From assembly GCA_964035575.1 (NCBI GenBank), contig OZ037836.1, forward strand, positions 806,001 through 870,000: a DNA stretch of 64,000 nt. The letters run 5' to 3'. This stretch comes from Rhynchopus sp. YZ270_cl-10 (lineage: Eukaryota). The translations under genes and the position numbers were made by a program. Within the stretch, counting starts at the first letter, position 1; each line of letters starts with the position of its first letter. The notes under the pieces were generated by a model. The model saw nothing but the letters and a program-made list of their open reading frames with translations, was not told the origin of the DNA and did no database searches. This document shows positions 7,755-39,952 of this stretch, in pieces.

Positions 7755-8645
7755 TTGTTTGTTGTGGTTTTGTGTTCTGATCTCTGTGTGTGGTGGTGGG
7801 GTGTGGAGGACAACAAGCCTGCAGTCCTTTTCAATGAAGGGTTGAAGGGGAGGGGTTCTTTGAGTGGTCAGCAAAGTGTGAAGAAATAAAGTGGCTTTGA
7901 ATGGGTGAAGCAAGACAGGCAAGTTGCCGGCTGCGTGGAGATCACACACGACACGCCTATTCACGTCACGATGAGGCTGGCCGACCGGTTAGGTTGCGAT
8001 GCCACAGTGATCAGGGTACCAGCCTTCTCTTGGGGTGATGGTGTGTACGTGCAGCCCCCTTCCACCATCTAGGATAGGATCTGTGTATCTCAGCGGGTTG
8101 AGGCTCGAAACAGAAAACGCTGTCAGAAAAGACGGTTGCGAGGGGGATGATGTCGTCACACCATTTTGCTTGTTTGCAGGAAATGAAAGTAATAAGAGTG
8201 ACAGAAGTGGCAGCAGTAATGTTGCGAAGGTGATTGGAAACAAAAGGAAACCCTGGTAAAAGGGAACAATTTGCTCAAACCTTTTTTTTAAGAAATGTAG
8301 TGTTTGCTTTTTTGTTTTTTTTTTTTGAAAACCTGGTTGTGTAGACACCCGAGGATGAATCCACATTTTTTCTGTTGCTTTTGTGATTTGGATCCATGAC
8401 CAAGCGACGTGCGGAACCTTGAGGCTATTCGACAGAACAATTCACAGTGGTCTTATCAGGAATCCTTTTTTGTGTTTTTTTTCAAAATACAAGTAAAAGT
8501 AAAAACTGTTTTCGGCGGGTCTGCTCCCTGACCAGGAAAAGTGCCCTTCGACCGCTTTCATCACAAAAAGTAAAAAATGAACACGGTTGTAGAGTCATCG
8601 TTTTTCAGTACTCTTTGAAATTGAAACCACACTCCTACTTTTATA

Positions 8646-9947
8646 CATAGCGCTCTAATTAGAGTATTAGGGTATAATTAGAGTCTGGGATTTTGGGCCA
8701 AGTCAGTTAGAGTCCAGTTAGAGTATAATTAGAGTCGCTTTTCTTTAATTAGACTTTTATTAGAGTGCAGTTAGAGCATAATTAGACTCTAACTACACTC
8801 TAATTATAGTCTAATTAGAGTATAACAACAGGCTTCTTGTAGGTGCAAACGCCTTAAGGAACCGGTTCCCCTAAGGTTCCTCTGTAGGACCCAGGTGCCA
8901 GGTACCTACATAGCTGAGATAAGACTTGGGGACCCGGGATCCGGTTATCTCAGCCGGACTGGGACACAATATGTGAAGGCGCTGTGGGTCCGCCTGAAAG
9001 CGAGTCGGGGACCCGGTCGCGGGAGGGTGGGGCCTAGTCCTAGCCTAGTACCCGGGACTCGGGACCCGGCTTATTCTCAGCTATGGGTTCCCAGGTACCC
9101 AGTCCCGCGCAGTGGCACATGCCCTCAAGTGTGAGTGACCCACACATGAGGACACCGCAAAAACTCTTCGTGCACCTTCGGTGCAACGCCGCAGACAGGC
9201 CAAACAGCGTTGGACTCAGAGGAATGCCGTGCAGGTAACAAACATGAAAACCAACTCCCAGCAACAAGGGGCGCCTTTTGGCGGGCGTTATTATTGAGGG
9301 TGTTTGGGGTGCAAAGTTTTCCACAATTTTGATGCGCGGGTACAGAAGTGTTGTCTTGTTCTTTCATCTCTAGGAATGTAAATGTCAATCGAGTTTAACT
9401 CCACTAAGGTGTCGAAGGGGTAATCCAAGTACCAACGACGGGAAATCTATGAGTATACGTTCATGTCATCCGCAGAAATAACTACTTATGAACCCAGGAG
9501 AGATCCAAGCCTCGCGCTAAACCACCACCCGCGATTGACTTAGATGTAAAAACAAAGAGCATTCATAACAAAACAACACCCTGCCCATACACACTAAATT
9601 GCCGTGCTTCTACCCTGGGCCAAAATTCCTGTGCTAAAAATGCAACAAGACCACCCACAAGGAGTGTGAATTGTGCAGTGGTTTTCTGGGGGAACAAACA
9701 ATATTTTCTTGTATCTAGTCCTCTGCAAGCAGAGAACAGACTTTCTAGATTACAAAGTAGAATTTCTTGCACTAGCTATGCTTCCTGGGTTAATGGCTAT
9801 AGCATTGGTTGATGTGCCCCTCTTATTGACCCTCTTATAAGACTCTAATTATGCTCTAATTAGAGTCCAGTTAGAGTTTTAAAGACTCTAATTACACTCT
9901 AACTGCCGACTCTAATGATCTAATTAGAGTCTAATTAGAGCGCTATG
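8646..9947. mobile_element. TIR element with TA/TATA TSD and ctctaattagag subterminal arrays (Tc1/mariner-like MITE, probably with nested inserts)
   Basis: CATAGCGCTCTAATTAGAG at 8646 and CTAATTAGAGCGCTATG ending 9947, flanked by TATA on both sides. Confidence 0.75.
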
Positions 9948-9954
9948 TATAATA

Positions 9955-12007: not shown

Positions 12008-12204
12008 ATATACTTTCCCTTTTTACGTTGTCCCCACACAATGGTCACAGCCTCAGCCAACAGTTTATATTACCCCAAAACGCACAGAAATGGATGTCCA
12101 AGGGAAAAACCCTTTCCTTGAAGTACAGAAATGAGGTGAGTGCACAATAAAGGGGGAGGAGAATAAAATCGTAACGTACACATTTTATTTTTCCTTCCTT
12201 CGAA

Positions 12205-14721: not shown

Positions 14722-15483
14722 GGTTTTGTGTCTCTCTGTTTTTATTCAGGTGATTTCAATTGGGGGTAAGAGTACGCAAGAGACAACAAACAGTGACAAG
14801 GGGAGAGGTCTTTTGTTTTGTTTTTGAAAGCTTCGTTGTATTAGTGTGGACACCCGAGGATGTGCAAAGTGTTGCACTTAGCCACCATCCTTTTGTTCAC
14901 TTGCCCTGCTGAGGCAGAGTGGCTGTTCTTCAGTTTTGTATTTTTTCCATGACTTTTCGGTTTTGTACACAACACACGAAGCGGTACGCGCACGGTTGTT
15001 AGGAAATAATACAGACCGAAATGTTTGGGCGGCTTCGGTTCGAATGATTGGAATTGCGTGTGAAACTCAGACATAAATACTGGCTCTTCTATCTTGTTCT
15101 TTTACTCATTGTTTTCCTTTCATTGCCCTTTGCTTGTGCTCCCCGACTCCAATTCAATCAACACTTACAGAGGGGGGCTAAAAAGTTATTAGCGTTTTTC
15201 AAAAAAAAAAAAAAAAAAAAGGGGGGAAATAGATGTTTGGCGTTATTGTTGTTACTGTGGTTAATTGTTTCTGTAATGCATTTGAACCTACTGCTCGCGA
15301 ATCATGTTCTGCTTTTTTGAAGACTCATAGTACCCTAGGACCGGCTTTATACACAGTACCGTCGAGGGACGTACTGTTGTCAACTATTCTACACTCTTTT
15401 TGTTCGTACTGATGGGGATACTGTCTTTCATACAGCAAACACGCCCAGCATTTGGATTCATGTTTATGCATGTGGCCCGCCGT

Positions 15484-16207: not shown

Positions 16208-17035
16208 TTAGGTTGCCGACCGCTCGGGAGATTCGTCTCTGCTTCGTTTCGGACGTGCTTCAACCACAAGCTTACTCAGCTTGCCGTTCCTCACTTCGTT
16301 GGACACAACACTGCTGCAGCCGGAAAGGTAAATGCTCGTCAACGAAGTACAGCGCGCAGCAAATTGCGTAGTGATAGTAGAAGTAAAAGGATGCAAACCA
16401 AACGACATCACATTCCTGAGTGGTGATAAATCCAGCGTTGTTAAGCTCGTGCAGGCGCCAAGAAAGCTCGCACCAACTTGCGTCACATTGCTGAATGCTG
16501 ATAAATCGATGGTGGTTAAGCTCTTGCAGCCCCAAAGAAAGCCGCTACCAATGTGCGTCACATTGCTCAACCCAGAGAGGTTGATACTTCTCAACGAGGT
16601 GCAGTCTGCCAGGAAGTTGGGTCCAATGTGAGTCACAATGGACTCAGCACTGAGATCAAGTCTCGTCAACGAAGAGCTTGACAAGAAGCAATTCGGAATG
16701 ACAGTCGCAACCTCCGCCTGCAGAAGCAAACACGCCACCCCAGGATCCCTCACCCTCTGCAACTTCTCGGCTGTGATGTTGGTCACACCCAACGCATGAA
16801 GCTCTGCAATGGCTTCTTGTTTCTGCGTTTTCGTGAGGATGATTGTGTCACCAGCACTCAGCCGCATCATGTCCGCTCCTTCTCCCATCGCTTCGTCTCC
16901 GAAACTCATGCAAAAGCCGTCTTCAGGCAACCCCATTGCAGACGCCACCTTCCGCCGCAAGCCCTCCACTGTGTCATCTTCACCCACCTCGACTGTGTGC
17001 TGATTCGCTCTGAAATCTTCGAAGTGCACGTCCAT
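16208..17035 (-). CDS. Ubiquitin-like + short LRR protein, copy C
   Basis: Intact ORF from the MDVHFEDF ATG at 17035. About 4 LRRs; basic tail RPKRSRDESP. Confidence 0.85.
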   Translation of the reverse strand: MDVHFEDFRANQHTVEVGEDDTVEGLRRKVASAMGLPEDGFCMSFGDEAMGEGADMMRLSAGDTIILTKTQKQEAIAELHALGVTNITAEKLQRVRDPGVACLLLQAEVATVIPNCFLSSSSLTRLDLSAESIVTHIGPNFLADCTSLRSINLSGLSNVTHIGSGFLWGCKSLTTIDLSAFSNVTQVGASFLGACTSLTTLDLSPLRNVMSFGLHPFTSTITTQFAARCTSLTSIYLSGCSSVVSNEVRNGKLSKLVVEARPKRSRDESPERSAT

Positions 17036-17870: not shown

Positions 17871-18692
17871 TTAGGTTTCCGACCGCTCGGGGGATTCGTC
17901 TCTGCTTCGTTTCGGACGTGCTTCAACCACAAGCTTACTCAGCTCGCCGTTCCTCACTTCGTTGGACACAACACTGCTGCAGCCGGAAAGGTAAATGCTC
18001 GTCAACGAAGTGCAGCCCTCAGCAAATTGCGTAGTATGAGTGAAAGGATTCAAATCAATCGACGTCACATTGCTGAGTGGTGATAAATCCAGGGTGGTTA
18101 AGCTGCTGCAGGTCGCAAGGAAGCCCACACCAACCTGCGTCACATTGCTGAGTGCTGATAAATCGATGCTGGTTAAGCTCCTGCAGCCGGAAAGGAATCC
18201 CGCACCAACCTGCGTAACATTGCTCAACCCAGAGAGGTCGATACTTGCCAACGAGGTGCAGTAGTATAGGAAGCTGTGTCCAATGCGAGTCACAATGGAC
18301 TCAGCACTGAGATCAAGTCTCGTCAACGAAGTGTGTGACAAGAACCAATTCGGAATGACAGTCGCAACCTCCGCCTGCAGAAGCAAACACGCCACCCCAG
18401 GATCCTTCACACTCTCCAACTTCTCGGCTGTGATGTCTGTCACACCCAACGCATGAAGCTCTGCAATGGCTTCTTGTTTCTGCGTTTTCGTGAGGATGAT
18501 TGTGTCACCAGCACTCAGCTGCGTCATGTCCGCTCCTTCTCCCATCGCTTCGTCTCCGAAACTCATGCAAAAGCCGTCTTCAGGCAACCCCATTGCAGAC
18601 GCCACCTTCCGCCGCAAGCCCTCCACTGTGTCATCTTCACCCACCTCGACTGTGTGCTGATTCGTGTCGAAACCCTTGATGTTCAGGTCCAT
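17871..18692 (-). CDS. Ubiquitin-like + short LRR protein, copy D
   Basis: Intact ORF from the MDLNIKGF ATG at 18692. Tandem duplicate of copy C, including flanks. Confidence 0.85.
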   Translation of the reverse strand: MDLNIKGFDTNQHTVEVGEDDTVEGLRRKVASAMGLPEDGFCMSFGDEAMGEGADMTQLSAGDTIILTKTQKQEAIAELHALGVTDITAEKLESVKDPGVACLLLQAEVATVIPNWFLSHTSLTRLDLSAESIVTRIGHSFLYYCTSLASIDLSGLSNVTQVGAGFLSGCRSLTSIDLSALSNVTQVGVGFLATCSSLTTLDLSPLSNVTSIDLNPFTHTTQFAEGCTSLTSIYLSGCSSVVSNEVRNGELSKLVVEARPKRSRDESPERSET

Positions 18693-18983
18693 GTCTTTGT
18701 TGTGGTTTTGTGTTCTGATCTCTGTGTGTGGTGGTGGGGTGTGGAGGACAACAAGCCTGCAGTCCTTTTCAATGAAGGGTTGAAGGGGAGGCAGGCATGA
18801 GAATAAGGCCCGGACCCCGGACCCCGGACCCGGCCCCCCGGAACCCGACACCCCCCTACCCTACTCTTGCTCCCTTCCCACCCTCTAAGAACTTGTCCAT
18901 TTTGGAAAAGTGACCCCACCATTGGCCGCACGGATTCCGAAAATGCAAATGCCGGTGTTTTTTGGTATTTTCACTTTGCACTC

Positions 18984-20004
18984 TGCCCGGCACTTTGCCC
19001 GGCACCCTGCCCGGCACCCTGCCCGGCACCCTGCCCGGCACCCTGCCCGGCACCCTGCCCGGCACCCTGCCCGGCACCCTGCCCGGCACCCTGCCCGGCA
19101 CCCTGCCCGGCACCCTGCCCGGCACCCTGCCCGGCACCCTGCCCGGCACCTTGCCCGGCACCTTGCCCGGCACCTTGCCCGGCACCTTGCCCGACACCTT
19201 GCCCGGCACCTTGCCCGACACCTTGCCCGGCACCTTGCCCGGCACCTTGCCCGGCACCTTGCCCGGCACCTTGCCCGGCACCTTGCCCGGCACCTTGCCC
19301 GGCACCTTGCCCGACACCTTGCCCGGCACCTTGCCCGACACCTTGCCCGGCACCTTGCCCGGCACCTTGCCCGGCACCTTGCCCGGCACCTTGCCCGGCA
19401 CCTTGCCCGACACCTTGCCCGGCACCTTGCCCGACACCTTGCCCGGCACCTTGCCCGGCACCTTGCCCGGCACCTTGCCCGGCACCTTGCCCGGCACCTT
19501 GCCCGGCACCTTGCCCGGCACCTTGCCCGGCACCTTGCCCGGAACCTTGCCCGGCACCTTGCCCGGCACCTTGCCCGACACCTTGCCCGGCACCTTGCCC
19601 GGCACCTTGCCCGGCACCTTGCCCGGCACCTTGCCCGGCACCTTGCCCGGCACCTTGCCCGGCACCTTGCCCGGCACCTTGCCCGGCACCTTGCCCGGCA
19701 CCTTGCCCGGCACCTTGCCCGACACCTTGCCCGGCACCTTGCCCGACACCTTGCCCGGCACCTTGCCCGGCACCTTGCCCGGCACCTTGCCCGGCACCTT
19801 GCCCGGCACCTTGCCCGGCACCTTGCCCGGCACCTTGCCCGGCACCTTGCCCGGCACCTTGCCCGGAACCTTGCCCGGCACCTTGCCCGGCACCTTGCCC
19901 GACACCTTGCCCGGCACCTTGCCCGGCACCTTGCCCGGCACCTTGCCCGGCACCTTGCCCGGAACCTTGCCCGGAACCTTGCCCGGCACCTTGCCCGGCA
20001 CCCT
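18984..20004. repeat. 12-bp minisatellite (TGCCCGGCACCY)n, ~85 units
   Basis: Directly visible, with variant units GACACC and GAACC. Confidence 0.97.
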
Positions 20005-20634
20005 GTTAAACCCCGACACCCCCACCCATTCCCAGCACCAACACATCCACAACAGAAATTTTACTATGTTATCACCCCAGGCAGCTGTACATGACAGCCT
20101 GTCCGGCACCCCCGCTGTCAAGAGGGGGTCCCGAGAAAGCCCCATTTGTGAATCTTTACATAGATTAGAGTCAGCTTAGAGATCCCCTCACCCCACCCCA
20201 CACCCAACGTGTCGTTCAGCACTCCAAAAAACCGAGACCCCCTCACCCTCACCCCCACCCCCTCCCTAGTAAACTTGTTTAAGCAGCTCTGCTGCGTCTT
20301 GGGGGTCTCTCGATTATATATTTTAGGCTTCGCGTCCTGCATGTTTATTGTCCACTTGCATCTGCAAGGTTGGAAGAGGGTAACAGGGGAAACTCATTAA
20401 AAATCATTCACTCACTCATCAGGATTTTTTGTGTTTCCCCGGTCTCACCCTCCGTACGTTAACTTCGCATAGTGTTTGCCAAAAAATTAAAAGATTGGGG
20501 CGGTAGGGTTTTTTATTCGGATTTGCGTTTTTTGCTTGTTGCTCTTATATAGGGAAAGTCAAAACACACCACCTTCATCAGGAATTTTTCCACAAATTTG
20601 TTTCCCCGGTGTGTTTTCCTTCCCTCGTACGAAT

Positions 20635-21663
20635 ATGGACTTGACAGCTGAGTTTGAGGGGCGCAAGGCCTGTCACTTCAAGGTGAGTGAAGTGATGCGC
20701 GTATGTTGTGCGGGAGCGCCAGATGTGGTGAAGACGGCGCTGAAGGATTCCTTCTTGCCGGGGGACTACATCCTGGCAACCCTGGCAGGATTGGGGGGTG
20801 TGGTGACGGAGAGCGACCTGCGGCAATTGGTGATTGAGGTCACCAGGTCGAATGAGGCGGCGTGGGAGAAGACGAAGCCCCGCCGTCTCGCCCTCTTTCT
20901 GGCCACGGTGAGGAACGGCCTTGGGGACGTGACCTTTGCGCAGTTGCTGAGTGGCGAGGACGCGGCATCTTTCCCTTGCTCTGAGGACGTATCTTCTCCG
21001 AAGGCCTCTGTGGAGACAGAGGAGCAGGCAGTGGCGGCCGAGGCAGTGAAGAAACGTTTTGTGTTTGCGCCGGTGGTACGCGAGACTGATGGGCAGGACC
21101 GCATCGCCGCTTTCGAGGCCGCACAGGACTTCCCAGACGACCAACCGGACGACCGCAGCGACATCCGCAGTGACGACATGGGGCCCGACGCTGAAACCGT
21201 GGCACTCAATCCGACGCGTTGGCAAGAACTCGACAGGTTTGGCCAAACCGAACTGTTGGAGCAACTCGCAAAATACGTGCCTGATAAGGAAGGGGACACA
21301 CGGGACGCGGCACGCGGAACTCTGAACCTGATCCAGAAGATTCTGAAGGGGAAGAACATGGGGGACCTCCTCGTGATCCTCCTGGACGACCTGCTATGTG
21401 TGCACTACCGTTTCACGATGGGGCTGGAGGCGGCCAGGGCGTTCCGTTCCCGTACATCGATGGGCACTTCGACCACCCCCCAACGCCGTGCAGCGATGCT
21501 GGCAGCGACGGCAGCGAATGCGCGCTTTGCAGGCACGAAGAGACGCCACAGCACCACCTCCTCCAACAACTACAACGACAGGGGATCGAAGCGCACGAGG
21601 TTCGACCCATCGGCGACCTTCGGACGGAAAGGAGGCAAAGGGGGGAAGCCTTTTCGCCAGTAG
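20635..21663 (+). CDS. Gag-like protein
   Basis: First ORF of the element (ATG 20635); basic/Gly-rich C-terminus RKGGKGGKPFRQ. Confidence 0.7.
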   Translation: MDLTAEFEGRKACHFKVSEVMRVCCAGAPDVVKTALKDSFLPGDYILATLAGLGGVVTESDLRQLVIEVTRSNEAAWEKTKPRRLALFLATVRNGLGDVTFAQLLSGEDAASFPCSEDVSSPKASVETEEQAVAAEAVKKRFVFAPVVRETDGQDRIAAFEAAQDFPDDQPDDRSDIRSDDMGPDAETVALNPTRWQELDRFGQTELLEQLAKYVPDKEGDTRDAARGTLNLIQKILKGKNMGDLLVILLDDLLCVHYRFTMGLEAARAFRSRTSMGTSTTPQRRAAMLAATAANARFAGTKRRHSTTSSNNYNDRGSKRTRFDPSATFGRKGGKGGKPFRQ

Positions 21664-22942
21664 CCACCACCGCGTCAACATCAACAACAACACCATCTAC
21701 AACTCCGGGGGAAACAAGGGTCAAAATACTGGGTCGAACAGAACGAACTATGGGGTGAATCGACGTCAAAAATCACATCAACTACAACAAACAAAAAGGG
21801 ACGAGGGACGACAGAAGGGAGAAAAGGGACGAACAGGGACGAGGAACTCCCCAAGGAACTGGGTCACAGTGCGACAGAGCGACACGGGGCGAACAGGGCC
21901 GAAACTGGTGACGGACCCGGTGACCCCGCCCAAGGAGGTGCTGCCCCCACCACACCTACCGGAGCACATGTCGCTTGGGACGAGGAAGATGTCGCTGCAG
22001 AGGGCGAAAGCTGTGGAGGACTTGGTGTTTGCGGAACGAGACGGGAAGGTACTGGGGAAGCTGCTGCACCGGACGCTGGAATGGGACCAGCTCGGTCAGT
22101 TTGCGAACGCCCCGAAGTACCGGGCGGAGCAAGACCGGGTCTTCGACCGGTTTATGGAGTGGCGTGCGACGCAGCGCGACGGCCTCCCCCCCGACGACCT
22201 CATCATCGGCTACGCGCACAGGATGCTGGCATCGGCTTCTCCGAAGACTGTACAGACCTACGTGGAGGTGATCGTGCGAAAGTCGCTGAGCATGGGCATG
22301 CGAGGAGTTCGAACGCGGAAGCTGCTGGAGGCAAAGAAAGGACTTATACGTTTGAGCACGATGATCCGCCCGCGACAGGCACCACCAATGACCACCACAG
22401 AAGCTTCAACTGCAATAGAGACGCTGTGGTCGCAAGGGAACAAGCCGGCTGCAGCACTGGCCGCGATTGCATGGGTATCGAGAGCTCGCGTGCCCGACCT
22501 GCGCTTCATCACGAAGGTAGATTGGAGGGAATTCCGCTCGGACACACCGCAGAAGCTGGACACCGTGGGGGGGGAATTCTTTGCGCGGGAGAAAGGATGC
22601 AAGGGATGGCGGCCCCCCATCAACATGCCTCCAGGGAGACTGACTGCGGTAGCGGTGAGATTCATGCGAAGCATCAAGGACGAAAAACAGCTAGTCTTCG
22701 GCGGGAATTCAAATGTGTACGAAAGCCTGAAACGTGCTATGAAGAAGGTGTTTCCCAACGCAGCATGGCTACATTCGTTACGACGGGGGGCGATCCAGGA
22801 GGTGGAGAAGACGGGAGTGGAAAGAAGCGAGCTGCGGGAGCTCCTCAGACACGCGAACGAAGCAGAGACGGTGCGTTACCTGAGGACGAACACACGGGGT
22901 CGACGAACGCTGGAGGCGAATCTGCTGTCTTCTCTTCAGTGA
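21398..22942 (+). CDS. Tyrosine recombinase (+1 frame relative to gag/pol; real start uncertain)
   Basis: Catalytic set ARVPDL (R), REKGCK (K), HSLRRG (HxxR), LLRH (H), VRYL (Y). Confidence 0.9.
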   Translation: MCTTVSRWGWRRPGRSVPVHRWALRPPPNAVQRCWQRRQRMRALQARRDATAPPPPTTTTTGDRSARGSTHRRPSDGKEAKGGSLFASSHHRVNINNNTIYNSGGNKGQNTGSNRTNYGVNRRQKSHQLQQTKRDEGRQKGEKGRTGTRNSPRNWVTVRQSDTGRTGPKLVTDPVTPPKEVLPPPHLPEHMSLGTRKMSLQRAKAVEDLVFAERDGKVLGKLLHRTLEWDQLGQFANAPKYRAEQDRVFDRFMEWRATQRDGLPPDDLIIGYAHRMLASASPKTVQTYVEVIVRKSLSMGMRGVRTRKLLEAKKGLIRLSTMIRPRQAPPMTTTEASTAIETLWSQGNKPAAALAAIAWVSRARVPDLRFITKVDWREFRSDTPQKLDTVGGEFFAREKGCKGWRPPINMPPGRLTAVAVRFMRSIKDEKQLVFGGNSNVYESLKRAMKKVFPNAAWLHSLRRGAIQEVEKTGVERSELRELLRHANEAETVRYLRTNTRGRRTLEANLLSSLQ

Positions 22943-24624
22943 TTCGGGGTCTGCAGGAGGGCTATCGGGGGATATTGGAGGAACATGAGAATGAGGTATC
23001 GGGTGAGCAGTCCGGAGAGTCTTCCCTGACGTGGCCCGATTTGGGTAAGCCACCCCCCAGACAGGCAAAGCTTGACTCCTTCCCGACCTCCACCATCAAC
23101 GTGCAACGTCTGTCGCAACTGGCGACGGAAGCGGGTATGGACCCACATTTCGCAAGCTGGATGACGAACCCTAACGCTATTTCGGAGGTGAAGTCAGGCA
23201 AGATCCCCATCCCAGGACCGAAATCCAACCTCCCTCCCTCTTTTGTGTCGGCATGTTTGAAGGCTGGTGTCTGCATGAAGGTGACGAAACGTGAGTGTGT
23301 CCGCGGAGTGGTCAAGGTGTTTACGGTTCCGAAGTCTGATCCGCTGATTCACCGCACGGTGATTGACGGCCGTCCCATCAACTGCGTGATGCCAAAGCCC
23401 CCAAAGTTCCACCTCTTCGCCCCGCCGCACCTGTTCCACATCCTGAAGCACAGGAAGGCTACGTGGTTGGCAAAAATAGACCTGAAAGGATTCTTCCACC
23501 AACTTCCTATCCACAACAACGTCTCCTCTTTCTTCTGTTTTCGCGTCGGGCAAAGCTGGTACAGATGGACTCGGGTGCCGATGGGCTGGTCTGTGGCCCC
23601 CTACATAGCACAGAACACAGCGGAAGCGCTTGTGGGTAGAGCAGTGGGCGTGCGTGCGATGGTGTACTTGGACGACATCCTTGTCTTCGGAGAGTCTTGT
23701 GAAGGAGTTCAGGCATCGGTAGCAGGGATCCTGGAACGGTTCAGTTTTGCAGGAGCAGAAATAAACGAGAAGAAATCGTGCCTCAGCCCAGTGCGGACTT
23801 TGGAGTACATTGGTGTGGAGTGGTCACCTGAGCAGGGTGTATTGCGGTTTCCGAGCACGTGGAGGGAGAAGGTGATGCTGATTTTTGTTTCATTTGCGTC
23901 TGCGTGGAAGTTGTCGATTCGGCGCATATGGCAGATGGTGGGTATTGCTATGCGAGTGCTACATGTCCTGGGCGTTCCGCTGTGTCACTTCGACGCCATA
24001 CTCCGGTGCCTCAGTGGGGGGTCCACGAAGATCGTGAGAGGCGAACTGGACTGGGACGTAGAGGTGGTGATCCCGGATGACTTGCGGAGGGAGATGGCTG
24101 AGATTGTCGATGCTTTCGTGCGCCCCATTCGGGATTTTTCATTGCCGGAGCCGGCTTCTGCATGGGACACGGTGGTGTGGACGGACGCGAGTACGACTGG
24201 TTGGGGCATTGTGTGGCAGCACCTGGACGATGCCGAGGCCGGGGCGGACTGGGGACAGTGGGTGCAGGCTGCGACGCACCGCGACATCTTCCTGCTGGAG
24301 GCAGAAGCTGCGATGAAGGGCATCAGAGCTGCATTGGAGAGCGGTTCCTCAAAGAGTGGGACCCTCCTGCTGGTGGACAACGAGGGCTTGGCGCATGCGA
24401 TCAGACGGGGACATACAAAGTCTCGTCTAGGGAACCTATTTTTACGTTATATTTTTTCTTTTGTGCAACCACACCACCTTCGTGTTGAGTGGATCGCCTC
24501 AGAGGAGAACAGCACTGCGGATCAGTTATCCCGGCGCACACATCTCTCTGAGGGAACGATAGCGGTACCGCTGTGTTGGGACCGTGTTCACAAGAAGGTT
24601 GATTCTTTTGGTTTTTCAGAGTGA
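21664..24624 (+). CDS. Reverse transcriptase + RNase H (DIRS-class); the frame is open from directly after the gag TAG
   Basis: KIDLKGFFHQ, PMGWSVAP, YLDDIL; RNase H WTDAS, LLEAEA, LVDN, NSTADQLSR. No stop in frame between 21664 and the 22081 ATG (checked codon by codon). Confidence 0.92.
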   Translation, partial: PPPRQHQQQHHLQLRGKQGSKYWVEQNELWGESTSKITSTTTNKKGRGTTEGRKGTNRDEELPKELGHSATERHGANRAETGDGPGDPAQGGAAPTTPTGAHVAWDEEDVAAEGESCGGLGVCGTRREGTGEAAAPDAGMGPARSVCERPEVPGGARPGLRPVYGVACDAARRPPPRRPHHRLRAQDAGIGFSEDCTDLRGGDRAKVAEHGHARSSNAEAAGGKERTYTFEHDDPPATGTTNDHHRSFNCNRDAVVAREQAGCSTGRDCMGIESSRARPALHHEGRLEGIPLGHTAEAGHRGGGILCAGERMQGMAAPHQHASRETDCGSGEIHAKHQGRKTASLRREFKCVRKPETCYEEGVSQRSMATFVTTGGDPGGGEDGSGKKRAAGAPQTRERSRDGALPEDEHTGSTNAGGESAVFSSVIRGLQEGYRGILEEHENEVSGEQSGESSLTWPDLGKPPPRQAKLDSFPTSTINVQRLSQLATEAGMDPHFASWMTNPNAISEVKSGKIPIPGPKSNLPPSFVSACLKAGVCMKVTKRECVRGVVKVFTVPKSDPLIHRTVIDGRPINCVMPKPPKFHLFAPPHLFHILKHRKATWLAKIDLKGFFHQLPIHNNVSSFFCFRVGQSWYRWTRVPMGWSVAPYIAQNTAEALVGRAVGVRAMVYLDDILVFGESCEGVQASVAGILERFSFAGAEINEKKSCLSPVRTLEYIGVEWSPEQGVLRFPSTWREKVMLIFVSFASAWKLSIRRIWQMVGIAMRVLHVLGVPLCHFDAILRCLSGGSTKIVRGELDWDVEVVIPDDLRREMAEIVDAFVRPIRDFSLPEPASAWDTVVWTDASTTGWGIVWQHLDDAEAGADWGQWVQAATHRDIFLLEAEAAMKGIRAALESGSSKSGTLLLVDNEGLAHAIRRGHTKSRLGNLFLRYIFSFVQPHHLRVEWIASEENSTADQLSRRTHLSEGTIAVPLCWDRVHKKVDSFGFSE

Positions 24625-26974
24625 TATGCATTTGTGATTTCTTTTATTCTTTCTCTTTTTCTCTTGTCCTTTCTTCAAAAGAGTGTTGTGGTCGTACACA
24701 TGTCAATCGGACTGGAAACGATGTACCAAAGCGGTATATGGTGTGTTTTCCTTCCCTCGTACGTCACAATAAACGAAACCCCTCCTCACATTGTTTTTGT
24801 TGCGCTTTCAGGACCTCATCGACGGATCACTATTTGTACACCAGATCTCCACCCCCACCCCCACCCCTTGTGAGAATAGCCACCCAGGACCCCGGACCCG
24901 CACCCCCCTAACCTTATTCTCATGCCTGAGGGGAGGGGTTCTTTGAGTGGTCAGCAAAGTGTGAAGAAATAAAGTGGCTTTGAATGGGTGAAGCAAGACA
25001 GGCAAGTTGCCGGCTGCGTGGAGATCACACACGACACGCCTATTCACGTCACGATGAGGCTGGCCGACCGGTTAGGTTGCGATGCCACAGTGATCAGGGT
25101 ACCAGCCTTCTCTTGGGGTGATGGTGTGTACGTGCAGCCCCCTTCCACCATCTAGGATAGGATCTGTGTATCTCAGCGGGTTGAGGCTCGAAACAGAAAA
25201 CGCTGTCAGAAAAGACGGTTGCGAGGGGGATGATGTCGTCACACCATTTTGCTTGTTTGCAGGAAATGAAAGTAATAAGAGTGACAGAAGTGGCAGCAGT
25301 AATGTTGCGAAGGTGATTGGAAACAAAAGGAAACCCTGGTAAAAGGGAACCTTTTTTTAAATGTGGCTGCGTAGATTATTTGCTGCACTCAGAGAAAGAC
25401 AACTGAGTTCCCTCCAATTTAGATGAACAGCACAGAATAGAATAACATGACGGAAAGAATACGAACCTGAAAAACCAAAATAAATACTACAGGTGTCAAA
25501 TAGCTATCTTCACCCACACAGGAAAAACGGGAAACGAAACAGGGGGATAGTTTGTCACTTGTACGCTTCCACCGAAAAAGAAAACTTGAAAGATGAAAGT
25601 GCCTTCCGTGCACACACAGCTGAGGGTGCGATCTTTGATTATGTTGACAACTACTTCACTGCTCCATCCTACTTTCTCAAGCGCCACGACGGATGCGGAC
25701 CCACACGATTGAGGAGCTCCTGCTGTCTGATGACGCGTGGTACCTGCATGTTCCGCAAATACTCAACGTCATGCGAACCCTACTTGGAACTCTTTCTGGA
25801 CAAACACGAAGCCGCTTTGCCACAAGCAGAACCCATGGCATGCCCAGAATCACTGCGCTAGGACGTAGGAAGCAAACCTCGTCCCCTGGCAGACCCTCCA
25901 CCACGGGGAGGTGCTGCCCTGCCACCAACACACCACGTCGTCATTGTGCGTGTCTCTGTCGCTTCTGGCTTTGCTCGGGGGACTCGTCTCTGCTTCGTTT
26001 CGGACGTGCTTCAACCACAAGCTTACTCAGCTTCCCGTTCCTCACTTCGTTGGACACAACACTGCTGCAGCCGGAAAGGTAAATGCTCGTCAACGAAGTG
26101 CAGCCCTCAGCAAAATGCGTAGTATTAGTAAAACTACTCAAACCAATCGACGTCACATTGCTGAGTGGTGATAAATCCAGGGTGGTTAAGCCGCTGCAAC
26201 TCATAAGGAAGCCCGAACCAACTTGCGTCACATTGCTGAGTGGAGATAAATCGATGCTGGTTAAGCTCGTGCAGCCCAAAAGAAAGACGCTACCAATGTG
26301 CGTCACATTGCTCAACCCAGAGAGGTCGATACTTCTCAACGAGGTGCAGAATGACAGGAAGTTGTGTCCAATGTGAGTCACAATGGACTCAGCACTGAGA
26401 TCAAGTCTCGTCAACAAAGAGCTTGACAAGAACCAATTCGGAATGAAAGTCGCAACCTCCGCCTGCAGAAGCAAACACGCCACCTCAGGATCCTCCACAC
26501 TCTCCAACTTCTCGGCTGTGATGTCTGTCACACCCAACGCATGAAGCTCTGCAATGGCTTCTTGTTTCTGCGTTTTTGTGAGGTAGGGGTCCGTTTTAGG
26601 TCTCTGGCAGGCCGGGCCTTCTTTCTGTGGCCTTCCCAACCAAAAGACCCCCAAAAAACACAGGTACCTGCTGCGTTTAGTGGCACTTTACCCCAGTCCC
26701 TGGAACAGATCGGCAAGCCGACCAGCCCAGGTATGCATGCCAACACTACTGGGGGTGCACTGTTCGATAGCATAAAAGAAAAGTCAAAAAGTCAAAAAGA
26801 CAAGAAGGTCAAACAAAATAGGTACTTCGAACAGGGCTGACAGGAGGGGATTCTCACCCGAGGTTCGGTGCCTGTCAGGCTGCGATTAGTGGTTCTGGGT
26901 GATTCCCTTCTTCCGTCCAGGCCCGAACCGGAAACATTAACCTCCGTTTTTCGAAACAATAAAAGTAAAAATGA

Positions 26975-27044
26975 AAAATATATCCGTTTCGCTTGATCAG
27001 ATCTCGACCGTTTGTTGCATTGCACGCTTCCACCTGCCGACACT

Positions 27045-27099
<55 letters not shown>

Positions 27100-28145
27100 A
27101 AAAAATTGATTGTTTCCAGCACACGCGGACTGTGTCAGTGTGTGATGGTATATGAGTATTGCCTGAAGTACAGAAAATGGGAGTGTCGGTGGCGGAGCAC
27201 AAAAGAGGTAAAATGAGAAACATATCGGGTGGGGTCTCTGATCTAATCTGTGCGACGAATATATTTCCCCTAACACGCCATGTTTGGCCAGGGCCTCTCC
27301 AGCGCGTCAGTTGCAAAATATATCCGTTTCGCTTGATCAGATCTCGACCGTTTGTTGCATTGCACGCTTCCACTCAGGACCCTAAGGACCCTCGGATCGA
27401 AGGGACGCCGCGCGAACGATGAATGGGATTACGCTCCGCTGCTAAACCGGTAGTGTGATCGGGTAGTCTGCCACCACGCCTCTCGTGTACTTGTCTGCTT
27501 TTTGCTCCAACGTCGGTACCCATTCACATGCGACTTGGATGCGGGCGCCGGCCGCTAGGGTGAAAAGTTCAGCGATCACGAAATTTGAGCGGTAGTCTGA
27601 AGAGTGGCCCCTCTGGAGGCTGTGTACAGCCGGGAGGTTGTCGACCATCAGCCTGAGTCGCGTAGTATGTACCGATCTTGCCGCAAGTGCTACAGCCTGC
27701 TGCCCGGCATCAGTGCTCCCATCCTTCGCAGACTCCGACGGTAATCCTGCACCATTTGGGACTCCGCCAGGCGTGCGTCCCCTGTCCGCCGTAACGCCGC
27801 CGCCACGTCCATCGTATATTGCAGCGCCGAACTACTCCGTCTAAAGACCTTTTCTTTTCCACCCAATATATGAGCGCCACTTCGTGTGAGATTGTGCATG
27901 TGTGTTTCTTTTTTTTTTTTTTTTTGAAAAAATTGATTGTTTCCAGCACACGCGGACTGTGTCAGTGTGTGATGGTATATGAGTATTGCCTGAAGTACAG
28001 AAAATGGGAGTGTCGGTGGCGGAGCACAAAAGAGGTAAAATGAGAAACATATCGGGTGGGGTCTCTGATCTAATCTGTGCGACGAATATATTTCCCCTAA
28101 CACGCCATGTTTGGCCAGGGCCTCTCCAGCGCGTCAGTTGCAAAA
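26975..28145 (-). mobile_element. Internally deleted split-direct-repeat (A1-B1-A2-B2; PAT/Ngaro-type) YR retroelement retaining an RNase H C-terminus
   Basis: A = 27926-28145 and 27099-27318; B = 27315-27373 and 26975-27033. ORF 27442..27648 VDNLPAV..LQRG...EWVPTLEQKADKYTR is DIRS-type RNase H. Confidence 0.85.
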
Positions 28146-28361
28146 GAAAAAGCAACAGCAAGAGCAGTGTTGCTGTAAAAGAAACAGCAGCACCGTCAGC
28201 TAACATGCCACACAATATGGCAGACGGCCACACAAAATTCCCCTGATTTGTACAGAGAAAGTTGTAACTTCTTCCTTACAAGTAAAGAAATGCCGGCAGG
28301 GAAGGAGTTACAACAAACAGTGAACAAACTCAAGTACCAGCCTTTCCGCGTAGCACAGACC

Positions 28362-28745
28362 CTACATTTGGTAGTTGGTCTGCCCTACTGCCTCATCTGC
28401 ACCGTAGCTGGACGCCACGGCGACAACTCCTTCATCTATCAACGCACCAAAGCACGTGAAAATAGAACAAAAACAAACACAATGGAAAAACAGCAGAGCA
28501 TGTACCTGCAGATCCACAGTTGTTTCACGTACAGTGCATACACCCTGAAAGCTTAACCTCTTCCTTCTAGCACAGACGTTGGTCTGCCCTACTGCCCCTT
28601 CTGCACCGTAGCTGGACGCCACGACGACAACTCCTTCATCTATCAACGTACCAAAGCACGTGAAAATAGAACAAAAATAAACACATTGGAAAAACAGCAG
28701 AGCATGTACCTGCAGATCCACAGTTGTTTCACATACAGTGTACGC
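28362..28745. repeat. Diverged tandem duplication (~200-bp unit x2)
   Basis: gttggtctgccctactgcc...cagttgtttcac repeated at ~28374 and ~28578. Confidence 0.8.
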
Positions 28746-29479
28746 ACCAACAAAGCAACAAAACGTTCCCATGCGGTCAAACGACAACACAGGAACAGCA
28801 ACAATATTCCGTCACCAGTAGAGACACCGGCAACGCTTCCTTCTTGTACCTGGGATCCCCTCATCGGCATCAACACACTCCCAGTCACCGCACAGGTAAC
28901 AGATCCTTGAAACCCCTCGAAGGGGTTTGCGTAGCCTGCATAAGCTGGTGATCTGCCCGAAATTGACTGTGATGTTGTGTTAATAACGAGGGTCCCCACA
29001 TCGGCTTGTTCCTCCTCCGGTCCCGAGCGAATCCATCATTGGAGAGGCGGCCGCCCACGCTGACTCAGTACCATGCGAACACGGCGTCCAGGGGCCCCAC
29101 TTGGCGGTTGGTCAGACGTTAATTGCCCCCTTCTGCGTTTTCGTGAGGATGATTGTGTCACCAGCACTCAGCTGCGTCATGTCCGCTCCTTCTCCCATCG
29201 GTTCGTCTCCGAAACTCATGCAAAAGCCGTCTTCAGGCAACCCCACTGCAGACGCCACCTTCCGCCGCAAGTCCTCCACTGTGTCATCTTCACCCACCTC
29301 GACTGTGTGCTGATTCGTGTCGAAACCCTTGATGTTCAGGTCCATGTCTTTGTTGTGGTTTGTGTTCTGATCTCTGTGTGTGGTGGTGGGGTGTGGAGGA
29401 CAACAAGCCTGCAGTCCTTTTCAATGAAGGGTTGAAGGGGAGGGGTTCTTTGAGTGGTCAGCAAAGTGTGAAGAAATAT

Positions 29480-33769: not shown

Positions 33770-36700
33770 CTAGTGCATGGTGATGCGCACAGGTGTGAAG
33801 CTCTTTGCCTGCCACGCGTCGCGGAAGCGTTCGTACACAGGCCCCTCGCCTGTTGCAAACAGTGCCTGTGCCTCAGCTTCGAGGCCGTGTTCCTGTGTGG
33901 TGGTTCGTATTTGAAGGGTTGTTAACAATGGTGTACAGGAAGAATAAATGATGGTTTGTGTGAGTCATGTTAGGTCATGTTGTGTGGAATGTCTTAAATC
34001 GCAAATATCGCTCTAAGATGAAGAGCATAAGCACAAAGGCTACGGACAGCAGTGATGCTGAAGACACATACAGCGTCATCTGTTAGCACCTAGACATACC
34101 TTGAACAGCGACTTAAATATCAGTGTCGCAACAGTGTTCCACTGCCTCATCGGGTCCTTCTTCGAAGCCTCCTCCAGCTGGTACATCCACTCGTCAGTGT
34201 TCGACACGTCTCTGTACAGAGAAGTTCAAACAAACACATCGGCTTCGGAAGCTTCCTGAAAGTCACCCCTTCCACCACCTTCAACACAAACGACGTCTCC
34301 ACCTCGGCATACACTACATGGTCCGTAAGCACACCAAACTCACGCTCCCTGCAGTACCGCTCCAGCGCATAGGCCCACGAGATTATAGGTGACAGGAACG
34401 AAAACCTGCGCATCACAGACGTGCCCATGTTCCCGACACGTCCCTCCCCAGTCACAACCGACGCTGTCGTGTCCACACCCAGCTTCTTCGCAGTTTCACG
34501 GCAGATATGCGCAGAAGTGCACGCATGCACTCGGTGGTTGCCCCCGTGCGTCGCAGCGTTGAACGAACACGCGAACCTGTCACCCATAAACGGCTCCGTC
34601 ACACCCTTCTGCTTCGAGAACACAGCAACGAAGACCTCCAGCAGGTTCGAGTGCAGCTCCAACACCTCTGTGTCGGGCTTGTCCTCGCAGTGTCCGTGGA
34701 AGTCCTTGATGTTCACGACTGTGTAGGAGAAGCGTTTGTGCACCACTGCACACAGGAACGGGTTCAACGATCTGTCGAGACGCTTTGACGACTCATCCTT
34801 CTGTGACAGCGACGCTGAATGCGATGTTACAGACTGAGTAACACTTTTCCGGTCGGACACATCAGTGCTGATATCACCAAGCTGCACAGACTGCGGCATA
34901 AAGCTCTTGTACAGCTTCAGGTTCACAAGCATGTGCCCAATAGCGTGGTTCATCGTGCGCAGCTCACTGATGACGGACGTCTCGTCAGGAACGGTGCTGA
35001 TCTTCAGCACCGCTGCCTTGGCCATAAGCACCGCAGTGTCCTCAAACGGACGTGTCAGCACGTTGTTGAAGAGCATGAACACCACAACAGACGCCATCAC
35101 CAGCGCCACCATCACAAGGATCGTTCTGTTCGCCTTCTGCCGCAGTGCCTTGTTCGTGTTCTTCTCAAGAACGTCCAGATCCTGCAGTGTCCGCATGTTC
35201 GTCGCGTCGATCTTCCGCAGAATGTCCTCACGTGGGATCATCGTCGCAACGGTAAAGGGCTCCATCTCTCGTGTGTCGGAGTTTGTGTCAAACGTCCGTG
35301 TCTGCACAAGGAAGGACTTGCTCACGGGGTTGCGTCTCACTTCGTCAGAAGCATGCAGGAAGTGTGGCGTGTCTGGGAAGTACCTCCGCACAAAGGTCAG
35401 GCTGTCGATGCGACCCTTGAAGAACTGTCCCACGTAGTACGGGTTTGCATGGATACGCGCGTGAATAACAAGTTCAGACCCAGTGCGTGAGTCAGTGCCG
35501 TGAGCATGAAGTGTGCCGTTCACGTACAAGCTGCAACGTCCACCACCCATCACAGCTGTCACCGTTGTCCACGCACCCACAGGGAAGCCACGTCTCCCAA
35601 AGGCATCCACGTAAGGTGCTGTGCTGCACCCATACTGCAGAACAAACAGATAGATCTGCCCGTTCCCAAACAGACGGAAGTTCGTCTCCCCCACAAGCGA
35701 GTCTGTGAACAGACGAGGTGTGGTTGCACTTGGTGATGCTTCGTCGTACAGCACATCAGGCCTGATGCGCATGCTCACCATGAACTCCGTGTAGCGTGTG
35801 AAGTCTGGACGCAACATGCACTTCAGCACGGAGGCTGTGCTGGTTGTGTTCACAACACGCGAGGCGACACAACGACGTCCGTCTGCATGCACAAGCTCCG
35901 CATCGAACCCGTCGTACTTGCTCTTCCACGGCTCCCCTGCTGCACTCGCACGTGACCGCTCCACAACTGGCGCCTGCCGTGTCAGGTTCCTGTACACGTA
36001 CTGCACTGTCGACCCGTCAAACTCAAGCACGTCCTTCCCACGCTGTGTGTCGTGCACAACACAGTTCCCACACCCACCGTCACGCACCTCCGTTTCCCAG
36101 TGGTGCATGCTCGTGTCCACAGCAGCACCGTTCTCCACACTGAACTTTGCGAGTGTTGTGTGCGGCGACTCTATCCAGTAATCATCCTGGTCGAACTCCC
36201 CGTAGTGCTGCACCCATCTGTCCTCTGCTGGCGTTGCTGCTGCACCCGCGTCCAGGTAGCGTGCAAGGCCACTCACATTCATCGCGGGGTGCTCGTCAAT
36301 GGTGTACAGGGAGTACACACTCTTCAAGGTTGGCGCAAACATCATGGCTGTCAGTTCTCTGTCTTTTGCTGTCCCTGTGTTGAAGCCACCCAGAAGCGCT
36401 CTGTCGTGTCTGTCCACCACAAGCACAGTCATGTTCGCCAGGCTTGAGCCTCCAAGCCGTGCTGTGTCAATGGCCAAGGCAATGAAGTCCTCAAGACTCT
36501 CCTGCACAGCAATCGTCCCGTGGTACGGCATTGTGCTGCCCTCCATGTTCGACCCGGTCAGTGCCATGTAGGCAACGATTGGTGGACTGTACTCCCACAC
36601 TGCCGAGTGCAGCTGCACACGTCCTGTCTTCCAGATCACCTTCTTGACCCCGAACTGTGTGCCTCGTGTGACTGCGAGAGGATCGCCGCCCAAGTTGCCG

Positions 36701-38806
36701 ATGTACTCAGTGCTTGCGTTAAGACGCGAACGCGGGTAAATGTAGTAAGGTTCTGTGCTGGGCTCCGCTTCGGAGCCTTCAACCTTCTTGTATGAGAGCA
36801 GACCATACAGTCAACCAGCCTGTGTCTCCTGAATTGTCCCAACCACACCGTCGTCACGTTCCACGTCAGGTCTGTTGTCGTTCTTGATGCAATGGACAGC
36901 AGTGCACCCCATGTAGAAGCCACGTGTGGTGAACACACGCACAAAAAACTTGAAGTGTGTCATTACCGAGTTTGTAAACATCTCAAAAAACCGTGCCTGA
37001 ATGTGCCCAGCTCCCGTCGTAGTGAACACTCACAAAGCCGTTGTGTGTCATCATGACTCTGTCCTCCACTGCATTGAAGCCCACAGTCAGGCCGTCGAAG
37101 ATCTTGTCCATCACAATTGTGCGTGTGATGTTCGACAGCTCAATCGTGTTCTCCATCTCACTCATAACCAGTTTGTCTGCAACCTTCCGCCCGTTCGCCG
37201 TTGCTGTGTCTGTTGAGTCCTGCCCTGCAACGTGGACAAGAGAGAACGTCACAAGCGACGTGATCAGCAGCAGCGACACACTCACAGCCATGCTTGCCAC
37301 CTTCAGCGGGATCGCAAACCCAGACACAGCCATCTCCTCAGGCACCTCCACTGCATCACGGCGCTGCTTCACCACGATCCCTAACATCACCACTGCAGTC
37401 ATCACAACCACCACAAGACACACAACCGTCACAGTGTCGGTCAGGCCCAGATCGTCAGACGTGTCCTCCTCCTCAGCAACAGCCGCTACCTGCAGCGGTG
37501 GCGCCGTCATGGGCACAGTGTCCGACCAGTTCCCGTCAGTGAACGTGAGTGCATCAAGTGAGTAGCCAACACCAGGAATGTGCCTTCCACCACCCCGTGC
37601 GATCCACGCCATGAACTGTGCCGTCACCTTGCGTCCCACTGTGTGCACAGGGATCCCGACACGCATTGAGAATGCCTTCACTTTGTAGTACTCTCGCGAA
37701 CCGTATGTTGTCTTCGTCATGTACACAAACGCCGTGACACCACTTTCTTCAGCGTACCGTACCTGGTGCACAAGCGGACAGGAACTTTGGTAAGACGCAA
37801 AGACCATCTTCCCCTTGAGCGACGCAAAGTCTGAAGCAGCACAGCCCCAACGTGGCAGCTCTGTCGTGTACACTGCTTCGTCCTTCTGTGTCTCGAACGG
37901 AAGTGTCCGCACAAGCTGCAGAAGGGTCTCCCTCTTGCGTGGACGCAGGTCGTTCCCCATGACACACACGTGCTCTGCCTCACCAGGGATCCACATCGCA
38001 AGTGGACACTTCTCGCAGATGCGGTCCTGCTGTGCGTTGTCCACCACTTTGCATGTGTCTGCAAGGTCCACTTTGTTGTTGAAGCAGCCGTCCCACGGGT
38101 AGTCCTCAAGGTTGTCCAGGGCAGTCGGCGGCAGCTCAGAGCACTCAAACTTGATGTGGCCACGGACCCTTGCCCCGCTGTTCACAGCTGCTGCAATGTA
38201 GTCGGTTTCGTGTCTGTCTGCGTGCAGGAATGGGAAGTTCGTTGCTGTTGTGGAAGACGTGCCAGGTAGTGGCTCCCTTCGCTCTGTGAGGGAGTAGTCG
38301 CGCACAATGCCCACAGCAGCACCAGTCTGCTGCACAAGATCCTGCTTCACAACGTACTTGCAGCTACCTCGTGACACAATCACAATCTTCCCATCGTACA
38401 CCTTCCCGTCACCCAAGGAGTAGTCACTTGCCCTGCACCCACGATAGCTTCTCGACTTGATACTCTCGTTCCCGACCACAACAATGTCCATCTCCTTGTT
38501 GTTCAGTGGGTGGTATGCATCAATGTGCCCGTCGGGTGTCCACGGCTCGAACACGTTATCCGTAAGGCAGACCCACATCCCCGCCACCTCGGGCGGCTCT
38601 GTCACGACAAGCCGCACGGGACACTGGTAGTAGCAGTAGTCGTACAGCCGCCACGTGGTCCGGTTGCACATGATGTCCTTGCGCCAGCCATCGTAGATGT
38701 ACCGACTCGGCATCTCGGGGATGAACTTCCGGAGGCAGTCCTGACGGCGCACCGGACACTGCGGCTCTGCACCCCACGCAAGCAGCACCAGCACTGCTGC
38801 CAACAT
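33770..38806 (-). pseudogene. Disrupted paralogue of the PA-PA-LamG-HAMP-cyclase-like receptor; intron 33893-34099
   Basis: High identity to 41736-47731. 2-bp deletion at ~37000, in-frame TGA at ~36811 and a frameshift at ~34210. Last exon 33770-33892. Confidence 0.8.
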
Positions 38807-39952
38807 TGTGCTCACGTGGTTGTGAGGGAGCACACCTGCAGTGGTAGCTTTGAGTAGGGAACAGTGGGTGGACGAAGGCAAAAAGCAAAAAAAAAAAAAA
38901 AAATGCACGAGGGGCAGTCTCTACCTTCTTGTGGTAGGCGAATACAAGAAAAGGCACATCATAAGATGAGCAAGGATGAAAGAAGAATGAACTCACAACT
39001 TATTTTAAGTTTTTTTCGAAAACTGAAAAAGAAGTTATGAAAAAGGTTTCTTTCTCTTCAACTTAAACTACTACAAGAGTGCCGCTGCTGTGTACGGATA
39101 TCAGCAAGGCTTATTGGTGCTACCGAATCTAGTGTCGAAGATAAGATGGAGTATGTGACTCTGTCCCTCAAAGGCCTGCAAGACAGTGATAAGAAACAAG
39201 AGGGGTGCTGGAGGCTGCTAACCCGGTGGTAAATGAGAACGAAACGCAAGTGCTCTGCAGACTTCGTCATTTTCCGTTCACAAAAGAATCAGTTATAAAA
39301 TGCTCGAGAAGGCTCGTTAACTCTTTGCTTTGTTTTGGCTCAAAAGGCTAAAAACGGGAAGAGGATAAATTAAAGGTTGTTTATTGTTCGCTTCCAAAAT
39401 GAAATACCCCCCCCCCCCCCCCCCCCATTCTTTATTCGTTGTTGTTCAGTCCCGAAAACCCCCTCGAAAAACCCGCGTCCTGAAGTACGGGGGAGAGGTG
39501 GAGCAAAGGAGGGGAAAGGAGGAAACGGTAAGACCCAATGGCAGAAGAAAAAGGCGTCTTTCATGTCCAGACGTATTGTATGTTCGTACAAAAACAAAAA
39601 AAAGTACGTTTTTTTTCGTCACGTACTTTCTGCACCCCATAGTGGTGGCTCTCGCGTACATCTAAAGAAAAGGAAAGTTTATAAGATGCTCCTAAGCCTC
39701 TCCTGCTTAGTGACATTGAATCAAACGAAGGTCGTTCAGACAAATAAGAGTGCCGCTGTTAGTAGCGCAGCAGCCGGTCCTGATGAACACCTGACAGAAG
39801 TAACAGAGCATTACAAGAAGAGAAAAAGGATGAAGGATATCAAAATGCTCGAGAGACTCGTTACTCTTTGCTTGTTGCTCAAAAGGCTGAAAAACGGGAA
39901 GAGGAAAAATTAAGGTTGTTTGTTGTTCGCTTCCGCCAATTTTTTTTTTCCC

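Follow-up and report, generated by a model that had tools for sequence, protein, structure and literature searches.

The window analysed here is a 64,000-nt stretch of contig OZ037836.1 (assembly GCA_964035575.1, positions 806,001 to 870,000) from Rhynchopus sp. YZ270_cl-10, and all positions below are those of this window. It contains five paralogous genes, all on the minus strand, in which a ubiquitin-like (Ubl) domain is followed by leucine-rich repeats (LRRs). In two of them, paralogues A and B, the linker between these domains is interrupted at the same codon by an insert. The subject of this study is the insert in paralogue B (insert 2), considered together with the shorter one in paralogue A (insert 1), a truncated long interspersed nuclear element (LINE). 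The features concerned are given below, where ORF is open reading frame, UTR is untranslated region and HDV is hepatitis delta virus.

6875-6892, minus strand: downstream target copy of insert 1, an 18-mer identical to the upstream copy
6893-7539, minus strand: insert 1, 647 bp, a 5'-truncated LINE with the last 192 ORF codons (6961-7539) and a 68-nt 3' UTR
7540-7557, minus strand: upstream target copy of insert 1, an 18-mer identical to the downstream copy
16821-16838, minus strand: empty target in paralogue C, single copy
18478-18495, minus strand: empty target in paralogue D, single copy
25941-26583, minus strand: 3' half of host gene B, LRRs, reading frame remaining open
26566-26583, minus strand: downstream target copy of insert 2, 1 mismatch
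26584-29130, minus strand: insert 2, 2547 bp, non-coding; the outer element is 1380 bp without the element nested in it
26584-26597, minus strand: 3' terminal 14-mer of insert 2, common to the LINE at 12 of 14 positions
28374-28756, minus strand: internal direct repeats of insert 2, two of 179 bp lying 204 bp apart, 166/179 identical
29057-29130, minus strand: predicted HDV-like ribozyme from a descriptor scan, insert 2 nt 1-74
29131-29148, minus strand: upstream target copy of insert 2, 18 bp, L-T-K-T-Q-K codons
29131-29345, minus strand: 5' half of host gene B, Ubl domain, frame closing 6 codons inside insert 2

The target encodes L-T-K-T-Q-K within the Ubl/LRR linker, and the 18-mer occurs six times in the whole window when both strands are searched and up to 3 mismatches are allowed. 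A preliminary description, made from the sequence alone, had reported an 18-bp duplication of the target around a 2.5-kb insert, the empty site in paralogues C and D, a shared 3' motif and unlike interiors, and all of these observations were confirmed. The terminal 14-mers of the two inserts agree at 12 of 14 positions (naive P 3e-6), the motif was found in the window only at these two ends with up to 2 mismatches, and in both inserts the 14-nt tail directly abuts the target copy with no poly(A). The interiors do not align, save that LINE coding sequence at 7311-7340 gives a gapped match of 32 nt (E 0.001) to the opposite strand of the ribozyme region at 29070-29100. The distant Ubl-LRR paralogue at 12820-14745 has an empty and diverged site, and a 12-bp tandem array (18978-20020) lies immediately upstream of paralogue D.

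The preliminary description had also proposed that the two insertions were independent, and the host sequence around them agrees. Over 215 positions of upstream flank, paralogues A and C differ at 2, B and D at 5, and A and B at 17, and all 12 of 12 informative sites group AC against BD. Each filled copy is thus paired with a different empty copy, which indicates that the insertions in paralogues A and B are independent events; a single ancestral insertion with a swapped interior is rejected on the same grouping. The downstream flanks are mosaic (7 informative sites for AC, 6 for AB, 16 for AD), which fits gene conversion. Misassembly had been named as a possible refutation. Public Logan contigs from another run, X6, cross both junctions of insert 2 and continue into Ubl-LRR sequence, which argues against it; the X6 pieces listed cover each junction separately, and none spans the entire insert.

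Insert 1 is on sequence criteria derived from a LINE of the type that carries an apurinic/apyrimidinic (AP) endonuclease (APE) N-terminal to its reverse transcriptase (RT). Its 192 codons are identical at 192/192 positions to residues 1473-1664 of protein P0043, and a longer relative, an RT protein of 1212 aa, is 99% identical. The cluster of this relative leads to the full-length proteins P0043 and P0050 (1664 and 1666 aa), which represent two LINE families that are 77% identical. P0043 has an Exo_endo_phos domain (PF03372, residues 106-314, E 6e-10) and an RVT_1 domain (PF00078, residues 684-900, E 2e-19), and its best PDB matches are L1 ORF2p and R2. The hallmarks of APE-type LINEs are present, namely a fixed 3' end, variable 5' truncation and a target duplication, with DNA of the 3' junction coming from insert 1 only. 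In the 3' UTR of insert 1 a long hairpin (z -2.93) precedes the 14-nt tail, and there is no poly(A).

It had been claimed that the inserts also share a conserved 5' terminal motif. This did not survive: insert 1 begins with the codons G-V-A-Y-R-L at residue 1473 of the LINE ORF, and because the sequence continues that ORF, what had looked like a terminus is a break point. CGTCTG at positions 13-18, read earlier as a family motif, is impossible at all 3 other known LINE break points. The break point of insert 1 (7539) leaves GT one base in, and an AG is possible at the end of the downstream target copy (6875), so canonical splicing could restore the frame of paralogue A. The LRR half of this paralogue is open.

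Other parts of the LINE protein are less easily named. No RNase H family was found at E<=0.5 in any of the 8/8 LINE proteins scanned, and Pfam gave no match for the insert 1 ORF alone. The open frame of insert 1 closes with Cys/His repeats; in both families two such repeats are followed by a C-terminus (6973-6996 in insert 1) that is PIP-box-like, and this suggests PCNA binding. Residues 81-88 of the full-length proteins, before the endonuclease, form a 2A-like motif. In the ESM Atlas the region after the RT matched unnamed clusters at 0.90 and gave a zf-RVT lead at 0.88 only. Among named relatives, proteins of Diplonema papillatum come closest (about 40% identity), which suggests that the host is a diplonemid, and in an RT tree of 24 rows, built without reference clades, P0043 and P0050 group with D. 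papillatum P0010 and P0012 (97/94). The P0014 cluster is a third related LINE family from the same source, 30% identical, with 33 members, and 10 of the 15 listed are full length; no Ubl fusions occur among the matches listed for it (15 of 33 members).

The preliminary description had suggested that one site of an expanding gene family is targeted, and a survey of fusion proteins strengthens this. The survey covered 28 proteins of two LINE families (15/34 members of family A and 7/7 of family B, plus small clusters); these may share the window's assembly, yet they are different loci. A foreign N-terminus was present in 5/28, and in 3/5 of those it was a Ubl domain. The three Ubl domains join the LINE after L-T-K-x-x, in family B at parent residues 611 and 1094 and in family A at 843, and each join passes through K or N, the residues dictated by a cut after the final two A's of the target. 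With insert 1, LINE copies with four break points (611, 843, 1094 and 1473) therefore meet Ubl-LRR genes at one codon. The target tolerates change, since the Ubl subfamily in one of the fusions has no more than about 60% identity to paralogue D. A further 23/28 proteins begin within the LINE ORF and are uninformative on flanks. A search of metagenome contigs gave 0 matches to the insertion-junction pattern, and 586 matches to the LINE protein pattern with 0 confirmed. At 26564 an X6 contig passes from the 3' half of the Ubl-LRR gene to sequence of a different kind, which may be a further insert next to this site. These fusions are also a warning for annotation, as gene callers here merge Ubl starts with LINE fragments.

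Insert 2 is a different kind of element. It has no LINE coding remnant (best E 0.06 against 51 LINE proteins), and in having no coding capacity and a 3' tail common to a LINE it resembles a SINE-like (short interspersed element-like) partner of the stringent type, although only 14 nt are common; excerpts of PMC3747384 set out this concept. Tandem Repeats Finder reported a T run only, and the 5' 28-mer had 0 matches in viral contigs. The insert runs on the same strand as its host gene and parts the Ubl domain and the LRRs, which would inactivate paralogue B. With a stop 6 codons past the start of the insert in the host frame, this paralogue is likely a pseudogene.

The length given earlier was misleading, as the 2.5 kb is not a single unit and part of it belongs to a second element nested inside; insert 2 as one 2.5-kb unit was accordingly rejected. 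The parts of this tyrosine-recombinase (YR) type element are as follows.

26975-28145, minus strand: nested YR-type deletion derivative, order A1-core-B1-A2-B2, net 1167 bp
27905-28145 (A1) and 27078-27318 (A2), minus strand: A repeats, 240/241 identical
27312-27373 (B1) and 26972-27033 (B2), minus strand: B repeats, 61/62 identical
27481-27651, minus strand: C-terminal remnant of RNase H, from tblastn to the RT/RNase H ORF at 21664-24624 of the window (29%, E 5e-5)

A core of 4 T's marks either end of the nested element as well as its inner B1/A2 junction. The split direct repeats and the RT/RNase H coding remnant are those of VIPER/TATE elements, with the gag and YR parts missing here. In common with VIPER/TATE as described in excerpts of PMC12278014, the order is A1 ... 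B1-A2-B2, an RT/RNase H remnant is present and there is no long target duplication; the differences are that only a 1167-bp deletion derivative is present and that a poly(A) run closes the A repeat. The nested site is empty in runs X1 and X2, and X6 and X8 have contigs that connect its two sides. The outer element therefore exists without the nested one. In the X6 and X8 copies that lack it, 26914-28142 is represented by 148 nt, which exceeds the window copy by about 90. An apparently complete YR retroelement lies at 20491-24624 on the plus strand, with a gag-like ORF and a YR ORF overlapping the RT/RNase H ORF, and at 29% identity in the RNase H part it is a different family from the nested element.

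The 5' end of insert 2 is marked by a predicted structure. In our model, nt 1-74 can fold as an HDV-like nested double pseudoknot, with predicted cleavage 5' of the first base. The helices would be P1 (1-6/36-41), P2 (16-19/68-71, extendable), P3 (20-22/32-34), P1.1 (24-25/42-43) and P4 (47-51/56-60, with a UUCG loop), and C-U-G-A precedes the 3' strand of P2; the predicted catalytic C is nt 63. The helix lengths and the C-N-R-A rule of the descriptor are HDV features. The descriptor matched once in 128,000 bases (both strands), at 29130, which is the first base of insert 2, compared with 5 matches in 559 dinucleotide shuffles (71,552,000 bases). When nt 1-81 were folded by a nested-structure method, which cannot represent pseudoknots, z was +1.62. 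No variants within the 74 nt were found among the public contigs listed. The helix names follow excerpts of PMC3185411.

Public contigs also give hints of copy number. Element contigs are 10-30 times deeper than paralogue-specific ones (5000-9700 versus 129-450 in X1; 1300-3450 versus 86-148 in X2), a rough hint of tens of copies, as depth is not copy number. Contigs continuing past nt 1 in X2 sum to ~3190 versus ~3130 for the 5' contig, and no loose ends behind 29130 were found among the matches listed for that run (16 of 29). These X2 depths fit Ubl flanks for most insert 2 copies without proving them. The depth over nucleotides 1-60 is ~1.8-1.9 times that of the adjacent interior contig (9700 versus 5120 in X1; 3097 versus 1694 in X2), and X2 has no alternative contig over 29040-29069. 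Because nt 1-60 are nearly twice as deep and X2 has no alternative contig there, another family has this segment in common; its carrier may be the LINE in its full-length form or a further subfamily of passengers. The second family diverges right after A-T-G-G (29071-29074). LINE proteins start M-E and would diverge exactly there, and the last strand of the ribozyme would then have to differ.

Taken together, these data make it probable, and we hold this with good confidence, that insert 2 is a non-autonomous retroelement, headed by a predicted HDV-like ribozyme and with nearly the same 14-nt tail as the APE-type LINE of insert 1, whose protein inserted it through target-primed reverse transcription (TPRT) at the 18-bp site of Ubl-LRR genes. 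The proposed steps follow established TPRT. The element would lie in the sense direction in a transcribed gene, and its ribozyme would cut the read-through host RNA at nt 1 and so free the 5' end. The LINE protein would bind the 3' hairpin or tail of the element RNA, and its AP endonuclease would nick the two strands 18 nt apart, giving the 18-bp duplication. Reverse transcription primed at the nicked target would then copy the RNA, with an early stop giving a copy like insert 1 and complete copying a copy like insert 2.

Several points weigh against this model. At the sequence level the link between insert 2 and the LINE consists of 14 nt, the site and the length of the duplication, and the full-length LINE parents are known as proteins. 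The 3' hairpin, significant in the LINE (z -2.93 and -3.76), is weak in insert 2 (z -1.70 and -1.11), and the terminal 30 nt at either end of insert 2 pair at -16.9 kcal/mol, a marginal value that 22/500 shuffles reach. The target copies that flank insert 2 are equal at 17/18 positions, with the mismatch at 26577. The 5' 18-mers of the two inserts are equal at 11/18 positions (naive P 0.001), which is assumed to be a chance match. The ribozyme descriptor was composed after the sequence had been seen, which makes its match rate optimistic, a seventh P1 pair would be an A-G mismatch, and Rfam on 26400-29300 returned no ribozyme and 2 chance matches. Two of the 5 chimeric proteins (P0001 and P0005) carry non-Ubl N-termini without a match in the window, so targeting may not be strict, though these may be off-target or rearranged copies. 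Lastly, a LINE of the P0014 cluster could be an alternative mobiliser of insert 2.

The alternative that survives best, though we consider it improbable, is that insert 2 is a copy, internally deleted or much diverged, of a different autonomous LINE family whose target is the same and whose tail is similar. The depths in X1 and X2 show a second family carrying nt 1-60, a third related LINE family is present in the same source, and internally deleted derivatives of R2 are known (excerpts of PMC3414825). However, insert 2 has no coding remnant of the 51 related LINE proteins, and such a copy would still be non-autonomous in effect, so the mechanism would be unchanged.

It is considerably less probable that insert 2 is a DNA-level element, of the tyrosine-recombinase or DDE type, whose ends are asymmetric and which carries or duplicates the 18-mer while the LINE uses the hot spot by coincidence. 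The absence of poly(A), the defined ends on both sides and the presence of YR elements in the genome would fit such an element, but its tail is common to a proven LINE 3' UTR and the ribozyme-like fold begins at nt 1. Moreover, the target copies on both sides match the variant of the local paralogue (the A-A-A-A-C-G type in the window; C at 26574 and 29139 in X6), which is expected of a copied target, and VIPER and TATE yield no target duplication in excerpts of PMC12278014.

Of the two fates proposed earlier for the host gene, inactivation is far likelier, given the stop after six codons and the predicted self-cleavage at nt 1. Removal of insert 2 as a non-canonical intron from a functional gene, for which the paired ends, the open LRR half and the mostly non-GT-AG introns with paired ends of hemistasiid diplonemids (excerpts of PMC12621601) might speak, is the least credible alternative, as non-canonical introns of hemistasiids have medians of 37 and 91 nt versus 1.4-2.5 kb here (same source), D. 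papillatum is without unconventional introns in excerpts of PMC10161547, self-cleavage at nt 1 would sever the pre-mRNA, splicing must also remove one target copy, and an open 3' half is equally expected of a young insertion.

The window contains other features that may be of use to later work. Likely DNA transposons are seen at 9951-12011 (inverted repeats around a transposase-like ORF at 10007-11854), 2092-3794 (a long inverted repeat pair) and 61604-63628 (a 674-aa ORF with C-terminal C2H2 fingers). Duplicated receptor-like genes at 34116-38808 and 43020-47733 are 93% identical and resemble PA-domain adenylate cyclases; the copy at 34116-38808 is broken into two ORFs.

A wider interpretation is offered only tentatively, as we would sooner expect it to fail than to hold in full. 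It is that the LINE belongs to an undescribed APE lineage outside R1, Tx1 and Ingi, with strict 18-bp specificity in Ubl-LRR genes, ribozyme-headed passengers, pruning of the gene family and in-frame Ubl::RT fusions. No published diplonemid LINE aimed at a protein-coding family was found in a literature search whose coverage of subscription journals was poor. The two LINE families (77% identity) and many target variants are a natural series for studying how an AP endonuclease reads a long target. A compact passenger made of a ribozyme and a tail would show which cis signals are sufficient for mobilisation, which is of interest for RNA-templated gene insertion.

Most known target-specific retrotransposons use RNA-gene arrays and simple repeats; among protein-coding families, the chief example is the RHS hot spot of trypanosomes. 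Like R2 and its non-autonomous derivatives, the system described here is site-specific, and an HDV-like ribozyme frees R2 RNA from the host co-transcript (excerpts of PMC3774820 and PMC3414825). However, R2 has a restriction-like endonuclease and a 28S rDNA target, whereas this LINE has an N-terminal APE domain. Elements of the R1 and Tx1 clades (R1, SART, TRAS, Keno) have in common with it an AP-type endonuclease, a fixed 3' junction, variable 5' truncation and a multicopy target, but differ from the single long ORF with a 2A-like leader seen here. Within excerpts of PMC4640811, the known target-specific APE elements are R1 and Tx1, and their targets are non-coding.

The closest likeness in organisation, drawn from published descriptions and not from sequence comparison, is to the trypanosomatid pairs ingi/RIME and L1Tc/NARTc, each a euglenozoan APE-type LINE with a non-coding partner. 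L1Tc and NARTc have an HDV-like ribozyme that cuts at nt +1 (excerpts of PMC3185411 and PMC4035085), which is predicted only for insert 2, and a 2A-like sequence before the endonuclease (excerpts of PMC5814959) has its counterpart at residues 81-88 here. In the Ingi/L1Tc clade a 5' signature, Pr77, with such a ribozyme is common to LINE and partner; here the fold is predicted in insert 2, and its nt 1-60 recur in a second family. The 13 terminal nt that NARTc and L1Tc have in common (85%; excerpts of PMC1874656) may be compared with the 14 nt of insert 2 and the LINE. There are also differences. In the present LINE no RNase H and no poly(A) tail were found, a hairpin and a 14-nt tail take the place of the latter, the duplication is 18 bp, and the C-terminal Cys/His repeats run to a PIP-box-like end. 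The partner is 1.4 kb with internal repeats, and the target family is Ubl-LRR. Because RNase H and poly(A) were not found and the tree holds no reference clades, the LINE was not filed as Ingi. L1Tc and NARTc are described as only relatively site specific in excerpts of PMC5814959, while ingi and RIME in RHS genes, like the inserts here, use one hot spot in a protein-coding multigene family and leave pseudogenes in two halves (excerpts of PMC7563717). A second such case in euglenozoans, seemingly separate from that of the RHS genes, would show that a protein family in expansion can offer these elements a safe harbour.

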